Source: a virus
Taxonomy: Duplodnaviria > Heunggongvirae > Uroviricota > Caudoviricetes
Strand: one strand, 5' to 3'
Length of the DNA stretch: 7,092 bases
Virus record (IMG/VR): IMGVR_UViG_2529292836_000020
In this document: positions 1 to 6,911 of the stretch, piece by piece
How positions within the stretch are numbered: position 1 is the first letter of the stretch
Layout: each line of letters opens with the position of its first letter
The notes under the pieces: generated by a model
The model's database searches: none
What the model was told of the DNA's origin: nothing
What the model saw: only the letters and a program-made list of their open reading frames with translations
Translations under genes and position numbers: made by a program

Positions 1-1131
1 TCAAATGACCAGTTTTTTCCACTCCTTACCGCGTACATCGTTGTAAATATCGGTCATTTTTTGATTCGAATGACCTAGCAAAATTTTGGTATCAACCCCC
101 TGCTCTCTGAACAATCGCTCTGATAAAGATCTCTGCTCATGGAAAGAGGGTGGGGTGCCATTAGCACGCCAGTTGTAATCCACAGAATCCCGGGCTTTTT
201 TAAATGCAACTGTTAATGTTGCTGGCTTAACCATCCCGCCGCGCTTAGCTGTCCCTTTCGCGTGATGGTGGTGCAATAGCCACGGACTAAGAACACAATC
301 GCGGCAGGATGACACTACATCATCCAGGGTGAGATTTAATTTATCGCAACGCAGAGCCAGAGGGATGGCAATCCGGGTTCCTGTTTTTTGCTGTTCGACA
401 TGAAGATAACCATCCCGGATATCCGAAAATTGCATTTTGCAAATATCTGAAAGGCGCTGGCCTGTCATCAGTGCCAGCAGCATACCGCGCTGTAAAAAGT
501 AACCATCCTTTTCCGCTGCGTTATAAATCATCATCCACTCATCAAAAGTCAGTCGCTGTCTTGATATCCGCACCTGCGGTTTTTTTGCCGATTCTGCAGG
601 GTTAAAGCCTGGCGGGACATCGCCCGTTTGCTGAGCTTCCCGGAAAACATCGATCAGTACCTTCCTGAAAATTTGTCCCATTCTGTTATGTCCTCTGGCC
701 TTGTACTCTTCCAGTACTGATACCACATCTTTTACGGTTATGGCATCTAACGGTCTGGTGCCAAAACGTTCATCAAATACCCTGAGAGGGGCCGCTTTCT
801 GTTTCAGCGTGTTGAGTTTGATCTCGCCGTTTTCATATCTTTCCTGTTGAATTTTTCTGTAATTATTCAGAAAAATGGTAACGGTTGATGAACCGCCGGT
901 ATCACTAATAATTTTCTCCTGCAGACTGAGCATTTGTTCCATTTGCTGCCGGGCAAGACGGCTGTTCGCTTCTGCTGCAATAGTTTCTGCCAGTTTCTGG
1001 TCAATACTGCCGAGACCGTGATTTTTGCCTGTTATGGGATGCCTGTAACGCCAGTAAACTTTGTTATTTCTTTTGTCAAAATACGGAGATAATCCCGGAA
1101 CATTGGTTTTATATTTTCGCGGGCGCGCCAT
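1..1131 (-). CDS. int: Phage integrase, tyrosine recombinase (lambda Int family), 376 aa, complete
   Basis: ATG at 1131..1129 preceded by GAGGA 9 nt upstream; stop TGA at 3..1. C-terminus SFHEQRSLSERLF...LLGHSNQKMTDIYNDVRGKEWKKL closely parallels the lambda Int catalytic C-terminus (H-x-x-R box, LLGH and catalytic Tyr motif); R in ALMTGQRLSDI fits box I. Confidence 0.93.
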   Translation of the reverse strand: MARPRKYKTNVPGLSPYFDKRNNKVYWRYRHPITGKNHGLGSIDQKLAETIAAEANSRLARQQMEQMLSLQEKIISDTGGSSTVTIFLNNYRKIQQERYENGEIKLNTLKQKAAPLRVFDERFGTRPLDAITVKDVVSVLEEYKARGHNRMGQIFRKVLIDVFREAQQTGDVPPGFNPAESAKKPQVRISRQRLTFDEWMMIYNAAEKDGYFLQRGMLLALMTGQRLSDICKMQFSDIRDGYLHVEQQKTGTRIAIPLALRCDKLNLTLDDVVSSCRDCVLSPWLLHHHHAKGTAKRGGMVKPATLTVAFKKARDSVDYNWRANGTPPSFHEQRSLSERLFREQGVDTKILLGHSNQKMTDIYNDVRGKEWKKLVI

Positions 1132-1421: not shown

Positions 1422-2738
1422 TTAAAAATCAGCCTGATTCGGGATCAGTTTTTGCCAGATAACTGAAACGTATTTTGCCTGGTAACGGGCGTCATCAAGT
1501 GCATTATGGCGCTCACCTTCGAATGGAATAGCCGTTCTGGCATCGAAGTCTATGGCTTTCCCCAGCTCAACGATTGTGCGTACATCGCGATCGTTGTAGT
1601 AACGCCACGGGCAGGGGATCCCCTGCCGTTCGTATGAACGGCGCAAAATCGTGTTGTCGAAGTTGGCTCCATTTCCCCAGACCTGAACAAAAAATTCACC
1701 GGAGTTTTCGTCGATAAATTCCCGCAATTGTAACAGTGCATCATCTAACGGGATTTCATCGGTCATAATGGCAGACTGCGCTTCACGTGATTGCTTCAGC
1801 CACCTTTTAATGACGTCACGATCAATGACTCCGCCAGCAGTTTCCAGATCGATAGTCTTACTAAATTCCGGTCCCATATCTCCGGTTTGCGGATCGAAAA
1901 ATATTGCACCTATTGAGATAATCGGAGCATCAGGATTTTTTCCCATGGTTTCAAGGTCGATCATTAGATGGTCACACGTCCTACTGGCGGATGTGATTTC
2001 GTGATGACTGTTCACCTTAATTGAGTGATCTGCCGTCTCGCCAGTTTCATTATCGCTATTGTGATGCTGATCGCTACCAGCATTCTCCTTGTGTGGATGT
2101 TCAGCGCCTTCCATTTCCTTCGGATCATTTTCCTGAACTTCAACCTGATACTCTTCATCGAATGTTTCCTGGTATGTTGCGTCGCCCATCACCGCGCCAC
2201 AATCAGGGCAGTTGCCGCCGCCGGTCTGACCGCAGGCGGTGCAGATCTTTTCCGGTTCCTGTTGCACTACTGGTTCAGGTTGTTTCGTTTCTGGCTCGTT
2301 TTGTAACGCATTTGGGCTGTTTTGTTCCGCTTTCTGGTCGTTCTGTTCCGATTCTTGCTGGTTCTGGTTCACAGAATCGCGGGTTTCAATCCCCTTCACC
2401 CATTTCGGATCATTCGGGTCGCTAATCCCTGCAACAAATTCTCCGCGAGAGGCAGCAAGCAACTTATCGGCGTCAGGCTGGCTGATATTGGCTGCCTGCA
2501 TAATTTTGTTTACTTCGTCAGCGGTAACTTTTACCGGCTCTGGTTGTGCGGTCGTGTCAGATGCACCAGTATTTTGTTGTGAACCTGAGTATGTACCGTT
2601 TTTGCGGGCGAAATATTCTTCTTTCGTGATTTCAGTAGCCCCGGCAGCCAGCGCCTTATTCCAGACCAGAAAGTTTGTTTGCGCGACCGTATTTTTCGCC
2701 ATCCTTGTCGGTGAAGAGGAAGTAGAACGGCCCTTCAC
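1422..2738 (-). CDS. Intact C-terminal ORF of the exonuclease VIII-like gene (438 aa from GTG at 2738; contains the DEDDh 3'-5' exonuclease domain)
   Basis: Longest uninterrupted ORF in the window. Listed separately because an annotation pipeline may call it as a stand-alone exonuclease. First in-frame ATG at 2702 has no spaced SD. Confidence 0.55.
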
Positions 2739-3389
2739 GCTCTACAGATGGTTCGACTTCCACTTTGCATTCGGTTTTTTCGTTGTCCGGAATTGCCGTT
2801 TCCACTGCATCAGTTTCTGGTACTGGCGACGAGAGAGTATCAGTTGCGCTCTGATTTCTTCCTTCATCTTCAAACACGCCCTTTGTAGTCAGGTATTCAG
2901 TAATGTATTTGTTCAGTGCCACAGGGTCTTTGTGAATGTCGATCGGACGTTCACGGACAAGGCCAAAAATAGTCTGGCGGTCGTAGCGAAGGGCATCAGG
3001 CTGTTTGCGCATTGATGCCGAGATACGCTTCCAGTCTTCGCGTCGTTGTCGATAACTTCATTTTTTGCCCAGCGATGGATGCTGCCGTCAATGTTTCCGG
3101 CATCCACATCACCAGGCCAGAGAGCGTAGGCCAGTTCGTCATCCAGTGTTTTCCATGTCTGCTTGTATTCGCGATGAGTGGCAGCAATGACCGGGCTGAT
3201 TTTTCCTGTTGAATTTCAGTGTTCTGTTGATTGGCTCTGGCGCGGGCGAGATCAACAACAGACGTGTATTTTCCGGTTTCCTTGCGTTCACCTTCGCGAC
3301 GTTTTTTCCAGATGCGCATCTCTGCCTGAATTTCGGGCCATTTGGCACCAGGCTTACATTTATGCTTAACCCACCCGATGGCATGCAGC

Positions 3390-3887
3390 TTAAGTCCGGA
3401 TACATGGCGTTAACTTCTGCATTTTCATCAACGCTTCAACGATATGTCCGTCGAATGTTGCCATGTCTTCCTGCAACATTCCTGGCCTAATCACCATATC
3501 AACGGTGATGTTTTCACATGTGTCGAACTTAACCATGACAGCGTTCTGTACTTCAGGGGCCAGCTTGTCAAAAGTGACGTTCATCGGATCTGATTCAGTC
3601 TCAACCGGGACAAAGGAAGCTGACTCCTCATCCCAGCGGTTTTCCTGCATATATTCAGCATCCCAGGAATCGAGGGCAGGGCGGGGTATACCGGGTTTAT
3701 CCTCGCAAACAAGAAATTTATAAGCGCAGTCCTGAGCAGCCGGATAATGTTCCAGGAATTGCCAGTGAAATTTTGCGCGGGCGCGACGTTCATCACCGGC
3801 TTCAATGGCAGTGGCTACAGCGACTGCACCTTCTTCCTTTATTGCCTGTTCGTCCGGAATAGCGGCGCAAATAAAGACTTTACTCAT
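3390..3887 (-). CDS. N-terminal fragment ORF of the exonuclease VIII-like gene (165 aa)
   Basis: ATG at 3887 with GAGGT 9 nt upstream; ends at an in-frame TAA at 3392..3390 created by the first frameshift. Translation matches my recollection of the N-terminus of K-12 YdfE (unverified). Confidence 0.55.
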   Translation of the reverse strand: MSKVFICAAIPDEQAIKEEGAVAVATAIEAGDERRARAKFHWQFLEHYPAAQDCAYKFLVCEDKPGIPRPALDSWDAEYMQENRWDEESASFVPVETESDPMNVTFDKLAPEVQNAVMVKFDTCENITVDMVIRPGMLQEDMATFDGHIVEALMKMQKLTPCIRT

Positions 3888-3967: not shown

Positions 3968-4171
3968 TTACGGTGCTGTTTTAAGTCCTGCCGGGATTTC
4001 GTTATTATCCATGTGAATAACTTTATCGACCGGATAACAGTTACCGGGAATTTTCTGTTCTGCTGCGGCAGCCATGCATTCTTTCATTGAACCGTAAATG
4101 TCAATAACCATGTCAACAGGCTCGCCAGTATTAAGAAAAACAGTCAGAGTGAGGGCAATAGCAGTATTCAT
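3968..4171 (-). CDS. ydfD: YdfD-like small protein (67 aa; Qin prophage lysis protein family)
   Basis: ATG at 4171..4169 overlaps the dicB stop as ATGA, with AAGGA 8 nt upstream. Hydrophobic N-terminus MNTAIALTLTVFLNTG. Position immediately downstream of dicB matches the Qin operon order. The ORF track's longer start at 4225 would overlap dicB by 58 nt and is rejected. Confidence 0.8.
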   Translation of the reverse strand: MNTAIALTLTVFLNTGEPVDMVIDIYGSMKECMAAAAEQKIPGNCYPVDKVIHMDNNEIPAGLKTAP

Positions 4172-4534: not shown

Positions 4535-4577
4535 AAAAAGGGCGGCAGAGCAGTCACGGAGTAAAACTGATACCGCC
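4535..4577 (-). terminator. Intrinsic terminator-like hairpin plus U-tract at the DicF 3' end
   Basis: Stem GGCGGUA ... UGCCGCC followed by C and UUUUU (plus 4535-4539 is aaaaa). Confidence 0.55.
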
Positions 4578-4592
4578 AAACGTCACCAGAAA
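4540..4592 (-). ncRNA. dicF: DicF small RNA (53 nt; ftsZ-targeting antisense sRNA of the dicB operon)
   Basis: Minus-strand sequence UUUCUGGUGACGUUUGGCGGUAUCAGUUUUACUCCGUGACUGCUCUGCCGCCC followed by UUUUU matches the DicF sequence as I recall it, in the expected position between ydfC and dicB. Confidence 0.88.
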
Positions 4593-5282: not shown

Positions 5283-5438
5283 TCACTCACCTGAGTTTCT
5301 TTCCAGCCAGCGACGGGCACCATTTTCGGTTTTAAACGTTTTGCTTTTGGTATACGTCATCGCGGTGAACGTACCGTCCTGGTTGGGGAACACGCCACAT
5401 ACCAGAGATTCGCTGTTGCCAAGATCGATAGTATCCAT
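5283..5438 (-). CDS. ydfA: YdfA-like small protein (51 aa)
   Basis: ATG at 5438 preceded by GAGG 5 nt upstream; translation MDTIDLGNSESLVCGVFPNQDGTFTAMTYTKSKTFKTENGARRWLERNSGE. The upstream in-frame ATG at 5519 (78 aa) has a weak SD; the true start could be either. Confidence 0.75.
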   Translation of the reverse strand: MDTIDLGNSESLVCGVFPNQDGTFTAMTYTKSKTFKTENGARRWLERNSGE

Positions 5439-5616
5439 GCTGACCTCATTTCCCCTTAACGCCGGGGTAGCGGAACAAAAACCTGCTGCATAGTTATTAA
5501 AGTTGAACCCTGCCGTCATGTTCTTACGCCTCGGGCTGGCTACTTAACCCCTGACCACTGTCTGGTAACTCGAAGTATTGCCCTGCATTCTGTGGGGCGG
5601 GGTGGGTGGCAGGTAT

Positions 5617-5660
5617 ATAATGTACTTTGTGTTCATTGTTGTAAAGTACATTTAGTACAT
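5617..5660 (-). promoter_or_regulatory. Predicted leftward promoter of the dicB operon (-35 TTTACA at 5645..5640, 17-nt spacer, -10 CATTAT at 5622..5617) overlapped by operator-like hexamers
   Basis: Sigma70-like hexamers on the minus strand. Plus-strand TGTACT at 5621-5626 and AGTACA at 5645-5650 and 5654-5659 overlap the -10 and -35; AGTACATTT is a tandem direct repeat. Confidence 0.5.
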
Positions 5661-5735
5661 TTTGTGTGTAAAAAAATGAGATGGGATAAAGTGAAGCACA
5701 AACCCGGAGGAAGGCGCTACCGGATTTATGCTGGT

Positions 5736-6155
5736 TTAAGAGGCTTTTTGTTTTTTCTTTCGTGCTAACTCTTCGTAAATTGCATTGTACTTCTGTTTTT
5801 TCTCTTCAAGAGTTTTTAAAAGTTCATCTGTCTCACTGTCAGGGAGCTCGTCCAGAAGGTCAATGATGATTTTTTGTCTTGGATTTAACTCCTGATAGAA
5901 ACGTACCTGTCCACTTTCTTCTGTGTCCTCTCCCAAAAGATAGGTTGGTGTTGTTCCTATTAGTGTTGCTAATTCCCTTAATTTCTCCCGGCGAGGAATT
6001 GTTTCGCCATTAAACCATTTGCTAACCGCTTTTGGTGTTAATTTCATTCGACGGGCAATTTCTGCCTGCCTTCCATGTTGTTCATAACCAGCGTTTTCAC
6101 AGGCTAGCGCAAGCCTACTGGCGAACTCTTTACGCGCTTTATCTTCATGAACCAT
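5736..6155 (-). CDS. Prophage repressor, XRE-family HTH (DicA/CI-like), 139 aa
   Basis: ATG at 6155, stop TAA at 5738..5736. N-terminal HTH region (GRQAEIARRMKLTPKAVSKWFNGETIP) and C-terminal segment IIDLLDELPDSETDELL resembling the DicA C-terminus as I recall it; divergent from a cro-like gene. Confidence 0.9.
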   Translation of the reverse strand: MVHEDKARKEFASRLALACENAGYEQHGRQAEIARRMKLTPKAVSKWFNGETIPRREKLRELATLIGTTPTYLLGEDTEESGQVRFYQELNPRQKIIIDLLDELPDSETDELLKTLEEKKQKYNAIYEELARKKKQKAS

Positions 6156-6234
6156 AAGTTCAATGATATTCGCTCTTGAATGTACTGTCAGTTCTGTTAT
6201 AGCATGTACTCAAAGTTCACATTGTGAGGGTGAT
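6156..6234. promoter_or_regulatory. Divergent promoter/operator region between the repressor and cro-like genes
   Basis: Minus strand: -35 CTGACA (plus 6186-6191), 17-nt spacer, -10 TATCAT (plus 6163-6168), then 7 nt to the repressor ATG, implying a leaderless or near-leaderless transcript. Plus strand: -35 TTGAAT (6176-6181) and extended -10 TGtTATAGC (6195-6203); SD GAGGG before the cro-like ATG. TGTACT at 6181-6186 and 6205-6210, 24 bp apart. Confidence 0.5.
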
Positions 6235-6489
6235 ATGAACCAGAAAACACTTGAAGATGTAATCAAAACTGTTCGCGTTGCTGTTGTGGCCGACGTTTGT
6301 GGTGTCAGCCAAAGAGCAATCTATAAATGGATGGATAACGGAAAATTGCCTCGCACAGAATATACCGGCGAAACAAATTACGCTGAAAAAATCGCTCTTG
6401 CATCAAACGGATTATTTTCTGCCGATGCAATTTTAACTATTGGCAGGAATAAAACTACTACGAAAAAGCTGATGGGAGTTGATTCATGA
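6235..6489 (+). CDS. Cro-like HTH DNA-binding protein (84 aa)
   Basis: ATG at 6235 preceded by GAGGG; HTH segment DVCGVSQRAIYKWMDNGKLP. The ORF-track start at 6163 lies 7 nt from the divergent repressor start, inside its -10, and is rejected. Confidence 0.8.
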   Translation: MNQKTLEDVIKTVRVAVVADVCGVSQRAIYKWMDNGKLPRTEYTGETNYAEKIALASNGLFSADAILTIGRNKTTTKKLMGVDS

Positions 6490-6911
6490 AAATCAAGCAT
6501 GAACACATCCGCATGGCGATGAATGCCTGGGCGCATCCGGACGGCGAAAAAGTACCGGCTGCGAAAATTACCAAAGCGTATTTCGAGCTGGGAATGACGT
6601 TCCCGGAACTGTATGACGACAGCCATCCGGAAGCCCTGGCTCGCAATACTCAGAAAATTTTCCGCTGGGTGGAGAAAGACACCCCTGATGCGGTTAAAAA
6701 AATTCAGGCGTTGTTACCAGCTATCGAAAAAGCAATGCCACCTCTGCTGGTGGCCCGAATGCGCAGTCATAGCTCAGCCTATTTTCGGGAACTAGTGGAG
6801 ACGCGGGAACGACTGGTGAGAGACGCTGATGATTTTGTCGCAGTGGCGATCGCTGGTTTCAACCAGATGAATCGTGGTGGCCCTGCAGGAAATATTGTGG
6901 CTGTGCATTGA
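6486..6911 (+). CDS. YdaT-like (CII-like) regulatory protein, 141 aa
   Basis: ATG overlaps the cro-like stop as ATGA (6486-6489). N-terminus MKIKHEHI and position right after the cro-like gene fit the YdaS/YdaT-type module; family assignment is from memory. Confidence 0.75.
   Translation: MKIKHEHIRMAMNAWAHPDGEKVPAAKITKAYFELGMTFPELYDDSHPEALARNTQKIFRWVEKDTPDAVKKIQALLPAIEKAMPPLLVARMRSHSSAYFRELVETRERLVRDADDFVAVAIAGFNQMNRGGPAGNIVAVH

Follow-up and report, generated by a model that had tools for sequence, protein, structure and literature searches.

Candidate HK022/933W-type operators in the immunity region of a prophage with a Qin-like dicB operon

Two intergenic regions of a 7,092-nucleotide stretch of tailed phage DNA (the window) carry the hexamer TGTACT or its complement AGTACA at 5621, 5645, 5654, 6181 and 6205, and the question raised by this locus is what unit of protein recognition these hexamers belong to and which type of repressor reads it. 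A sequence-only reading placed them on PL of the ydfA-dicF-dicB operon and on the divergent repressor/cro promoters, and assigned them to operators of the adjacent 139-aa repressor. The coordinates are exact, both placements are supported by the sequence comparisons given here, and the hexamers of the pairs 5621/5645 and 6181/6205 are indeed offset by 24 bp; that reading assigned no role to the 9 bp between 5645 and 5654. The hexamers are very probably, on comparison with related phages, the GTAC-type halves of five 15-bp dyad operators of the HK022/933W CI family.

The hexamers and their partner half-sites

TGTACT lies on the plus strand at 5621-5626, 6181-6186 and 6205-6210 and on the minus strand (AGTACA on the plus strand) at 5645-5650 and 5654-5659. 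There are 8 copies of TGTACT/AGTACA in the window versus 1.86 expected, a number reached in 0 of 200 shuffles, and the 7-mer ATGTACT occurs exactly five times, each time at one of the reported hexamer sites. The remaining three hexamer copies (702, 3547 and 5786) are in coding DNA. The last of these, a lone TGTACT at 5786-5791 within the repressor gene, was considered as an extra operator and rejected; it has no partner half-site, and a match of at least 9 bits is found there in 0 of 80 related loci.

At 9 bp from each hexamer is a partner half-site that was missed earlier, AGTTCA, AGTTCT or TGTTCA, the GAAC/GTTC form of the half-site to which the hexamers themselves conform. The dyad consensus is TG(A/T)ACT-N3-AG(A/T)(A/T)CA with a 3-bp centre. 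The 15-mer TGWACTNNNAGWWCA, used as a query with up to 2 mismatches, gives 14 strand matches (7 sites) in the window versus 2.7 expected, 14 being reached in 0 of 200 shuffles, and all four sites with no more than 1 mismatch fall in the two intergenic regions. The earlier proposal of 6-bp half-sites separated by an 18-bp gap is thus mistaken in its unit, which is a 15-bp dyad, and the arrangement described as unlike that of lambda is in fact lambda-like in layout, 24 bp being the centre-to-centre distance of neighbouring operators. The seemingly unusual design of hexamers 24 bp apart is apparently the ordinary lambdoid one, recognized by only its most conspicuous half-sites.

Support from outside the window comes from a weight matrix derived from 11 operators that all belong to HK022, Klebsiella phage 2b or the 933W-type phage 24B, the window sites being excluded. 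The five sites are the top five in the window by this matrix, at 13.4-19.9 bits, and shuffled windows yield 0.10 matches per shuffle at 13.4 bits or more; the same top five are returned when the matrix is built from just the three operators annotated in 24B. The 11-operator matrix also finds HK022 OL3 (53 bp from OL2) and the HK022 far-right operator downstream of cro, at positions that agree with the description as summarized in PMC8053113. Equivalents of OL3 and of the far-right operator were not found in the window or in the 80 loci.

Table 1. Candidate features of the immunity region in window coordinates; mismatches are to TGWACTNNNAGWWCA and bits are from the 11-operator matrix
Feature	Position	Strand	Sequence	Basis or score
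PL-like promoter, ydfA-ydfB-ydfC-dicF-dicB operon	5617-5645	-		consensus scan
OL1-like operator	5621-5635		TGTACTTTGTGTTCA (- strand TGAACACAAAGTACA)	1 mismatch, 13.4 bits
OL2-like operator	5645-5659		AGTACATTTAGTACA (- strand TGTACTAAATGTACT)	2 mismatches, 13.6 bits
Stable hairpin, candidate terminator between repressor gene and OL/PL	5695-5732	-		-19.2 kcal/mol, z-score -4.7
Repressor gene, 139 aa	5736-6155	-		Pfam HTH_3, E 1.8e-9
OR3-like operator	6148-6162		TGAACCATAAGTTCA (- strand TGAACTTATGGTTCA)	1 mismatch, 19.9 bits
PRM-like promoter	6163-6191	-		consensus scan
PR-like promoter for cro	6176-6205	+		by eye and alignment to annotated 24B pR
OR2-like operator	6181-6195		TGTACTGTCAGTTCT	holds hexamer 6181; 1 mismatch, 15.8 bits
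OR1-like operator	6205-6219		TGTACTCAAAGTTCA	holds hexamer 6205; 0 mismatches, 17.9 bits
Cro-like gene, 84 aa	6235-6489	+		60% identity to HK022 Cro

The three OR-like sites are ordered with respect to the repressor start codon. OR1 is centred 57 bp upstream of the ATG, just past the PR -10 and over the expected PR start. OR2 is 24 bp closer to the ATG, its centre 33 bp upstream of it, and overlaps the -35 of both PR and the PRM-like promoter; it is matched in alignment by HK022 GGAACTGATAGTACA and by the site annotated as OR2 in phage 24B. OR3, absent from the earlier account, is the best matrix match in the window, is identical in sequence to HK022 OR3, and spans the repressor start codon, with the A of the ATG at its centre. 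On the other side of the repressor gene OL1 holds hexamer 5621, covers the PL spacer and -10, and aligns with HK022 TGAACTTTAAGTACA inside a 61-bp block of 80% identity. Both halves of OL2 are hexamers (5645 and 5654); OL2 is 24 bp from OL1, ends on the first T of the PL -35, and aligns with HK022 TGTACTATTGGTACT. The window form of OL2 is a minority variant, since most of the 80 loci have TGTACT(T/A)AAAGTACT.

Promoters and a short chimeric repressor

The predicted PL matches consensus with a -35 TTTACA (5645-5640), a 17-bp spacer and a -10 CATTAT (5622-5617), and the HK022 PL region has promoter hexamers at the same positions. The predicted PRM has a -35 CTGACA (6191-6186), likewise a 17-bp spacer, and a -10 TATCAT (6168-6163), and PR a -35 TTGAAT (6176-6181) with a candidate -10 in the OR2-OR1 gap, either TGtTATAGC (6195-6203) or TAGCAT (6200-6205). 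The earlier statement that the hexamers overlie promoter elements holds as to overlap, but the overlap is marginal when the bare hexamers are considered, with promoters placed by a consensus scan and, for PR, by eye. The predicted PRM start coincides with the ATG or falls no more than 3 nt from it, which would make the repressor mRNA leaderless or almost leaderless, and no Shine-Dalgarno sequence precedes the repressor ATG. In the phage 24B record the annotated OR3 covers the cI ATG and the pRM start is marked 1 nt ahead of that codon, and HK022 carries a "PM -10" label directly upstream of its cI ATG. The candidate terminator hairpin, just past the repressor stop codon, is not called by a consensus terminator scan. 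Rightward of the operators, the Cro-like product is related to HK022 Cro (E 1e-33) and to the Cro of Klebsiella phage 2b (59% identity), shows no similarity to DicC, and is followed by a CII-like (YdaT-like) gene.

By its sequence the 139-aa repressor is chimeric, residues ~1-80 being an HK022/933W-type HTH domain and ~85-139 a DicA-like helical tail. In tblastn comparison with phages the DNA-binding domain is 47.5% identical to HK022 CI, 50.7% to the 933W-type CI and 62-64% to Klebsiella phage CIs; the recognition helix TPKAVSKWFNGE is identical in Klebsiella 2b and one residue off that of HK022. Residues K42, S45, K46, W47, F48 and N49 are invariant in the repressor alignment, among them K42 and K46, which contact bases in the 933W repressor. 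The kinship with DicA suggested earlier is borne out, at 29% identity over 112 aa (E 5e-15) and for the tail alone at E 2e-8. Escherichia phage Tritos has a "CI repressor" with 100% identity to the whole protein; a literature search returned no mention of this phage and no relevant tie between HK022 and dicB.

In lambdoid CI repressors an S24-type C-terminal domain provides dimerization and cooperativity. No Pfam match to an S24 domain is found in the window protein, which ends at residue 139, and its binding mode and stoichiometry could consequently differ from those of HK022 CI. A sequence search of solved structures with the whole repressor returned only the P22 C2 N-terminal domain (E 0.006), and with the tail alone no significant match, the hits being designed helical proteins at E >0.1. 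An AlphaFold model from the single sequence has low confidence (pLDDT 53) and gives a weak sign of a helical tail.

By analogy with its relatives, dimers of the 139-aa repressor would bind the five sites through the HK022/933W-type HTH. Occupied OL1 and OL2 would cover the PL -10 and -35 and silence the ydfA-dicF-dicB operon; on PR, OR1 and OR2 at a distance of 24 bp would do likewise for cro and the ydaT-like gene; and OR3 on the repressor ATG, 33 bp from OR2, would provide negative autoregulation of the leaderless or near-leaderless PRM transcript. Through these sites the repressor most likely silences both lytic promoters, PL and PR. Since OR2 is directly over the predicted PRM -35, its occupancy may either activate or repress PRM. 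The analogous switches further suggest that the sites may fill in a set order, that PRM may be activated from OR2, that binding may be cooperative over the 24-bp gaps, and that OL and OR may be looped together. The HK022-like Cro would be expected on the same operators in a different order, a sharing that belongs to this model and is no rival to it.

As the repressor is without an S24 domain, its release is probably brought about by an antirepressor, as for DicA (PMC10448788), and not by RecA-stimulated cleavage, and the repressor is probably SOS-insensitive. It is a tentative and rather doubtful extension that a domain swap, if the tail keeps cooperativity or looping, has produced an SOS-insensitive, antirepressor-controlled and possibly HK022-homoimmune prophage. 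Were this true, the host would be protected from HK022-like phages with dicB and dicF kept silent.

Conservation among relatives and other explanations of the repeats

Relatives were drawn from viral contigs; a scan of species-representative genomes with the full repressor gave one locus only, a single 100%-identical copy in Shigella flexneri. The first viral scan yielded 80 window-type loci in which the DNA-binding domain is identical to that of the window, so that these report polymorphism only and not divergence, and a second set comprises 73 distinct HK022-/Klebsiella-type relatives, making 153 related upstream regions in all. Site centres at 0, -33 and -57 from the ATG are common to the window, HK022 and Klebsiella 2b, and this layout recurs in 73 of 73 distinct relatives (sites at -33/-34 and -57/-58), which show no further match of at least 9 bits in the 120 bp. 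All 80 window-type loci have sites at -57, -33 and 0, and 79 of 80 have them at +503 and +527, that at +527 (+/-1) being OL1. The OR3 site is at offset 0 in 153 of 153 related upstream regions.

Polymorphism in the OL region (42 haplotypes) is distributed as expected for sites of this type. The number of variant haplotypes per position averages 0.25 at half-site positions 2-5, 7.0 at positions 6/10, 5.5 in the centre and 1.95 in the flanks. This pattern fits the measured base preferences of the 933W repressor, for which positions 2-5 are critical, positions 6-8 are loose, and T at position 3 gives more than 3-fold better binding than A (PMC3317979).

The same data bear on whether the repeats could be due to chance or to the -10/-35 composition of promoters. 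Short hexamers in AT-rich intergenic DNA dense with promoters would allow for this, but such an origin is scarcely credible in view of the shuffle statistics for the hexamers, those for the 15-mer and the fact that a matrix from other phages puts the five sites first, and because position and spacing are kept in diverged relatives while centres and inter-operator gaps vary. It is also very unlikely that the functional unit consists of two 6-bp half-sites with centres 24 bp apart, bound by one repressor oligomer in a non-lambda architecture. The exact 24-bp distance in both pairs would suit such a unit, the unusual DicA-like tail might form higher oligomers, and the functionally analogous PaaR2 is octameric in solution (PMC8630535). 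However, the conserved partner 9 bp from each hexamer, a spacing that also separates hexamers 5645 and 5654 from each other, completes a 15-bp dyad, and binding of the 933W repressor to single 15-bp sites is established by experiment (PMC3317979). Moreover the paired hexamers are inverted in OL and direct in OR, which only independent dyads would tolerate, the 5645 hexamer is AGTACT rather than TGTACT in most relatives, and OR3, the top-scoring and most conserved site, contains no TGTACT at all.

The sites might instead be used mainly or only by the Cro-like or the YdaT/CII-like protein and not by the 139-aa repressor. The closeness of the Cro-like protein to HK022 Cro, the sharing of CI operators by Cro in lambdoid switches, and the presence of a CII-like gene after cro all lend this some substance; it is nonetheless judged very improbable, because over the 153 loci the operators track the repressor DNA-binding domain family, the repressor's own first codons form part of OR3, and the base-contacting lysines of the 933W repressor are kept. 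As to YdaT, its characterized site TTGATT-N6-AATCAA differs (PMC9986795), and nothing in the window comes within 2 mismatches of it. Recognition of 15-bp dyads by the adjacent repressor is accordingly the preferred reading, and it supplies precise, testable operator positions in a type of prophage carried by about one in five complete E. coli genomes. It would mean that the dicB operon is found under two unrelated operator/repressor specificities, that of Qin DicA and that of the HK022 type, and that an HK022-type switch can work with a short repressor without a cleavage domain; both bear on the prediction of prophage cross-immunity and of induction routes.

Comparison with known systems

Among known switches lambda resembles the window only in layout, with 24-bp OR1-OR2 spacing and three OR sites, and its 17-bp OR1 type (TATCACCGC) has no window match at up to 4 mismatches. 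The Qin prophage of E. coli K-12 carries downstream genes ydfA-ydfB-ydfC-dicF-dicB 91.6% identical to those of the window, and DicA is, like the window repressor, short and without a cleavage site, with a homologous C-terminal tail, whereas DicC of Qin is unrelated to the Cro-like protein of the window. The DicA operator Oc is TTGTTAGTCATAACTAACAA (PMC3441716). Sites of its type, a 20-bp inverted repeat TTGTTAG-N6-CTAACAA, have no match in the window at up to 4 mismatches, and the same search does find Oc in Qin; since Oc is absent and the DNA-binding domain is of the HK022/933W type, the hexamers do not follow a DicA-operator pattern, as had been supposed.

CP-933P, to go by its published description, has in PaaR2 a short CI-like repressor with a leaderless mRNA, as proposed for the window, together with a YdaT-type CII analogue downstream of cro and operators in OR-like and OL-like regions (PMC8630535). 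Its repeats are four 18-bp palindromes set at equal distances, with half-site GTTTAGTAA (PMC8630535), which has no exact match in the window, its 1-mismatch matches all being in coding DNA far from 5600-6240. The paaA2-parE2 toxin-antitoxin pair of CP-933P is absent from the window locus.

Phages 933W and 24B share with the window 15-bp rotationally symmetric operators with G(A/T)AC at positions 2-5, and a similar layout with OR3 over the cI ATG and a PRM transcript that is leaderless in the former and predicted to be so, or nearly so, in the window. They differ in that the 933W-type sites mostly begin with C (CGTACT), residue 41 of the repressor is S rather than the P of the window and HK022, and the 24B spacings are 24-25 and 31-32 bp (25 and 31 as annotated in the record) versus 24 and 33 in the window. 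The 933W repressor, which binds non-cooperatively (PMC5977221, Koudelka laboratory), is a long S24-type protein, unlike that of the window. Klebsiella phage 2b has operator spacings of 24 and 33 bp, as do the window and HK022.

The HK022 immunity region operators are reportedly treated by Carlson and Little in 1993. The region comprises CI, Cro, OR1-3, OL1-3 and OFR, according to the summary in PMC8053113. HK022 has the same half-site, TG(A/T)ACT-N3-AG(A/T)(A/T)CA, OR geometry, OR3 sequence and 24-bp OL1-OL2 distance as the window and the same PL -35, TTTACA, and nucleotide identity reaches 72% over cro, OR and the N-terminal part of cI (window 6330-5995) and 80% over OL/PL (window 5676-5616). 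However, its CI is a 235-aa protein with an S24 self-cleavage and cooperativity domain in place of the DicA-like tail, and the 73 HK022-/Klebsiella-type relatives all have repressors of 235-236 aa; it has OL3 and a far-right operator for which the window has no equivalents, its PL serves nun rather than a Qin-like dicB operon, and its cro is followed by HK022 CII rather than by a YdaT-type CII analogue. The window repressor thus stands apart from the lambdoid self-cleaving CI proteins, which have an S24 domain and undergo RecA-stimulated cleavage. It is in the dyad form, in the three OR and two PL sites, and in the cognate HTH with K42 and K46 that the locus agrees with HK022 and 933W, and the five sites add a member to an already known operator family.

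Fifteen-base-pair dyads at both promoter regions

The hexamer TGTACT or its complement occurs at 5621, 5645 (-), 5654 (-), 6181 and 6205, exactly as located in the sequence-only reading. There are eight copies in the window against 1.86 expected, a count reached in none of 200 shuffles, and the 7-mer ATGTACT is present five times, solely at these five sites. Every reported hexamer pairs with a GAAC/GTTC variant half-site 9 bp off, and the units are thus 15-bp dyads, TG(A/T)ACT-N3-AG(A/T)(A/T)CA. Consequently 24 bp is the centre-to-centre distance of adjacent operators (OL1-OL2, 5628 to 5652; OR2-OR1, 6188 to 6212), and the architecture first proposed, of 6-bp half-sites separated by 18 bp, is incorrect. 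A fifth operator overlooked in that reading, OR3, has the A of the repressor ATG at its centre, 33 bp from the centre of OR2. A degenerate 15-mer search allowing up to 2 mismatches yields 14 strand matches (7 sites) vs 2.7 expected, which 0 of 200 shuffles attained, and the sites with at most 1 mismatch are all intergenic. At the sequence level, the proposal that the hexamers are parts of predicted operators for the adjacent repressor, in both promoter regions, is upheld.

The first codons of the repressor (6148-6155, ATG GTT CA, Met-Val-His/Gln) also serve as an OR3 half-site; of the 153 related loci examined, essentially all preserve the ATGGTTCA repressor start.

Features of the window, with predicted operators and promoters
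Feature	Position	Strand	Details
Integrase gene	1-1131	-	excisionase next
recE-like exonuclease gene			between excisionase and ydfD/dicB
ydfD, dicB			dicB ORF end at 4168
DicF sRNA gene	4540-4591	-	Rfam RF00039, 76.7 bits
ydfC, ydfB, ydfA			ydfA at 5283-5438
PL	5645-5617	-	TTTACA, 17 bp, CATTAT; consensus promoter
OL1	5621-5635		+ strand TGTACTTTGTGTTCA; includes hexamer 5621
OL2	5645-5659		+ strand AGTACATTTAGTACA; includes hexamers 5645 and 5654
Helix-turn-helix repressor gene	5736-6155	-	139 aa
OR3	6148-6162		+ strand TGAACCATAAGTTCA; no reported hexamer
PRM-like promoter	6191-6163	-	CTGACA, 17 bp, TATCAT; consensus promoter
PR			-35 TTGAAT at 6176-6181; -10 in OR2-OR1 gap
OR2	6181-6195		+ strand TGTACTGTCAGTTCT; includes hexamer 6181
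OR1	6205-6219		+ strand TGTACTCAAAGTTCA; includes hexamer 6205
Cro-like gene	6235-6489	+	84 aa; divergent from repressor gene
YdaT/CII-like gene	6486-6911	+

Operators of related phages and their conservation

The N-terminal domain of the repressor is 47.5% identical to HK022 CI (residues 4-102), 50.7% to the CI of 933W-type Stx phages (residues 1-73) and 62-64% to the long CIs of Klebsiella phages 2b LV-2017 and Kp4862-1 (residues 1-102), and the cro-cI intergenic regions of HK022-, Klebsiella- and 933W-type phages display the motif and geometry of the window. HK022 OR consists of TGAACTTATGGTTCA, GGAACTGATAGTACA and TGAACTTATGGTTCA, spaced 24 and 33 bp centre to centre, the last site being over the cI ATG; Klebsiella phage 2b has TGAACTGTAAGTACA, GGAACTGATAGTTCA and TGAACATATGGTTCA at the same spacings. 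In phage 24B (933W immunity type) the annotated OR1, OR2 and OR3 are CGTACTTTCAGTACG, TGAACTGAAAGTTTT and CGTACTCATGGTTCA; OR3 covers the ATG, and pRM starts 1 nt ahead of it. The OL/PL regions of HK022 (TGTACTATTGGTACT-TTACA-TGAACTTTAAGTACA) and of the window (TGTACTAAATGTACT-TTACA-TGAACACAAAGTACA) share 80% identity across 61 bp.

A weight matrix derived from 11 sites of HK022, Klebsiella 2b and 24B, with no window sites, ranks the five operators as the top five in the window (19.9, 17.9, 15.8, 13.6 and 13.4 bits); in shuffled windows there are 0.10 matches per shuffle at 13.4 bits or more, and the same five come up with a matrix restricted to the three annotated 24B sites. Since the 11-site matrix also recovers HK022 OL3 (53 bp from OL2) and a far-right operator just downstream of cro, in agreement with the published description of HK022 (PMC8053113), the motif is genuinely that of the HK022 CI operators. 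An everted repeat, GGTTCAGGATGAACG, with half-sites in swapped order, was spotted by eye at 2860-2874 of the HK022 sequence (L007), ~60 bp downstream of OL1. In the window, a further TGTACT at 5786-5791, within the 3' end of the repressor gene, lacks a partner half-site, scores low with the matrix and is probably due to chance.

In 73 dereplicated HK022-/Klebsiella-type upstream regions from viral contigs (-110 to +10 of the ATG, cut-off 9 bits), all matches fall at 0, -33/-34 or -57/-58. Among the 80 loci whose repressor DNA-binding domain is identical to that of the window, all 80 have matches at -57, -33 and 0, and 79 have them at +503 and +527 (+/-1); four others are scattered at +776 and +807/808, and the matrix scan of these loci found no equivalent of OL3 or the far-right site. 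The five recurrent offsets thus define a type with exactly five operators, lacking those two.

Variant haplotypes per position among 42 OL haplotypes number 0.25 at half-site positions 2-5, 7.0 at positions 6/10, 5.5 in the central triplet and 1.95 in flanking DNA. This pattern matches the base preferences measured for the 933W repressor, whose 15-bp site is rotationally symmetric, with positions 2-5 critical, positions 6-8 loose, and T at position 3 bound >3-fold better than A (PMC3317979). In most of the 80 loci OL2 reads TGTACT(T/A)AAAGTACT, nearer the dyad consensus than the form in the window (- strand TGTACTAAATGTACT), whose second TGTACT is therefore a minority variant; this fits a dyad, not a repeated hexamer, and the window copy may bind slightly more weakly.

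A chimeric repressor

The operators had been attributed to a DicA-like repressor, and the C-terminal 60 residues (about 80-139) are indeed homologous to the K-12 DicA tail (30% identity; tail-alone E 2e-8). However, as an account of operator specificity the attribution fails: the DicA operator Oc, TTGTTAGTCATAACTAACAA (PMC3441716), was not found in the window, and the sites are of HK022/933W type. K42 and K46, base-contacting in the 933W repressor (PMC3317979), are both conserved, P41 stands in place of 933W S41, as it does in HK022, and the recognition helix TPKAVSKWFNGE is identical in Klebsiella 2b and differs by one residue in HK022. All 73 HK022-/Klebsiella-type relatives are 235-236 aa long with an S24-type C-terminus, unlike the 139-aa window protein, in which the S24 domain is absent. 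The repressor is thus chimeric, with an HK022/933W-type DNA-binding domain joined to a DicA-homologous helical tail. The Cro-like protein shares 60% identity with HK022 Cro and is not related to DicC. Motif searches of the window also led to rejection of DicA-type, lambda-type and PaaR2-type operator sets.

Prophage setting and predicted regulation

The window comprises the left arm and immunity region of a lambdoid prophage of E. coli. Several E. coli chromosomes carry region 5400-6500 at 100% identity, the prophage there adjoining ompW, and 1047 of 5426 complete genomes cover the region to at least 80%. Escherichia phage Tritos has an annotated 'CI repressor' that is 100% identical to the window repressor. 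A literature search turned up no paper about this specific prophage or its repressor. DNA left of 5476 is 91.6% identical to Qin, where the same operon is under DicA control, and from the presence of the DicF gene it follows that PL, under OL1 and OL2, heads the operon for DicF and DicB. The recE/exonuclease VIII-like gene (1425-3887, -) is frameshifted: the intact protein of strain F5505-C1 (823 aa) aligns to it in frames -2, -1, -2, its first 284 residues being only 75% identical, which suggests that this prophage copy is decaying or that there are sequencing errors. A stable hairpin (-19.2 kcal/mol, z-score -4.7) at 5695-5732 (-), directly 3' of the repressor stop codon, may end transcription of the repressor gene ahead of OL/PL; a consensus terminator scan made no call there.

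OL1 covers the predicted PL spacer and -10 and OL2 abuts its -35; OR2 lies on the predicted PR -35 and OR1 on its start; OR3 sits on the predicted start of the PRM-like promoter, at or adjoining the ATG. On the model of HK022, 933W and lambdoid phages in general (PMC5977221), repressor at OR1 and OR2 would block PR, at OL1 and OL2 it would block the dicB operon, and OR3 would mediate negative autoregulation; Cro would use the same sites. Because OR2 overlaps the predicted PRM -35, its occupancy may or may not activate PRM. Binding across the 24-bp gaps may likewise be cooperative or not: HK022 CI is highly cooperative (PMC8053113); 933W CI is not (PMC5977221). DicA is released by an antirepressor (PMC10448788), and since the window repressor lacks S24, the same would be the likeliest induction route for this prophage.

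By every sequence-level comparison made, the five sites belong to the HK022/933W operator family; the one mildly unusual feature is a domain-swapped short repressor that keeps the full HK022-type operator geometry.
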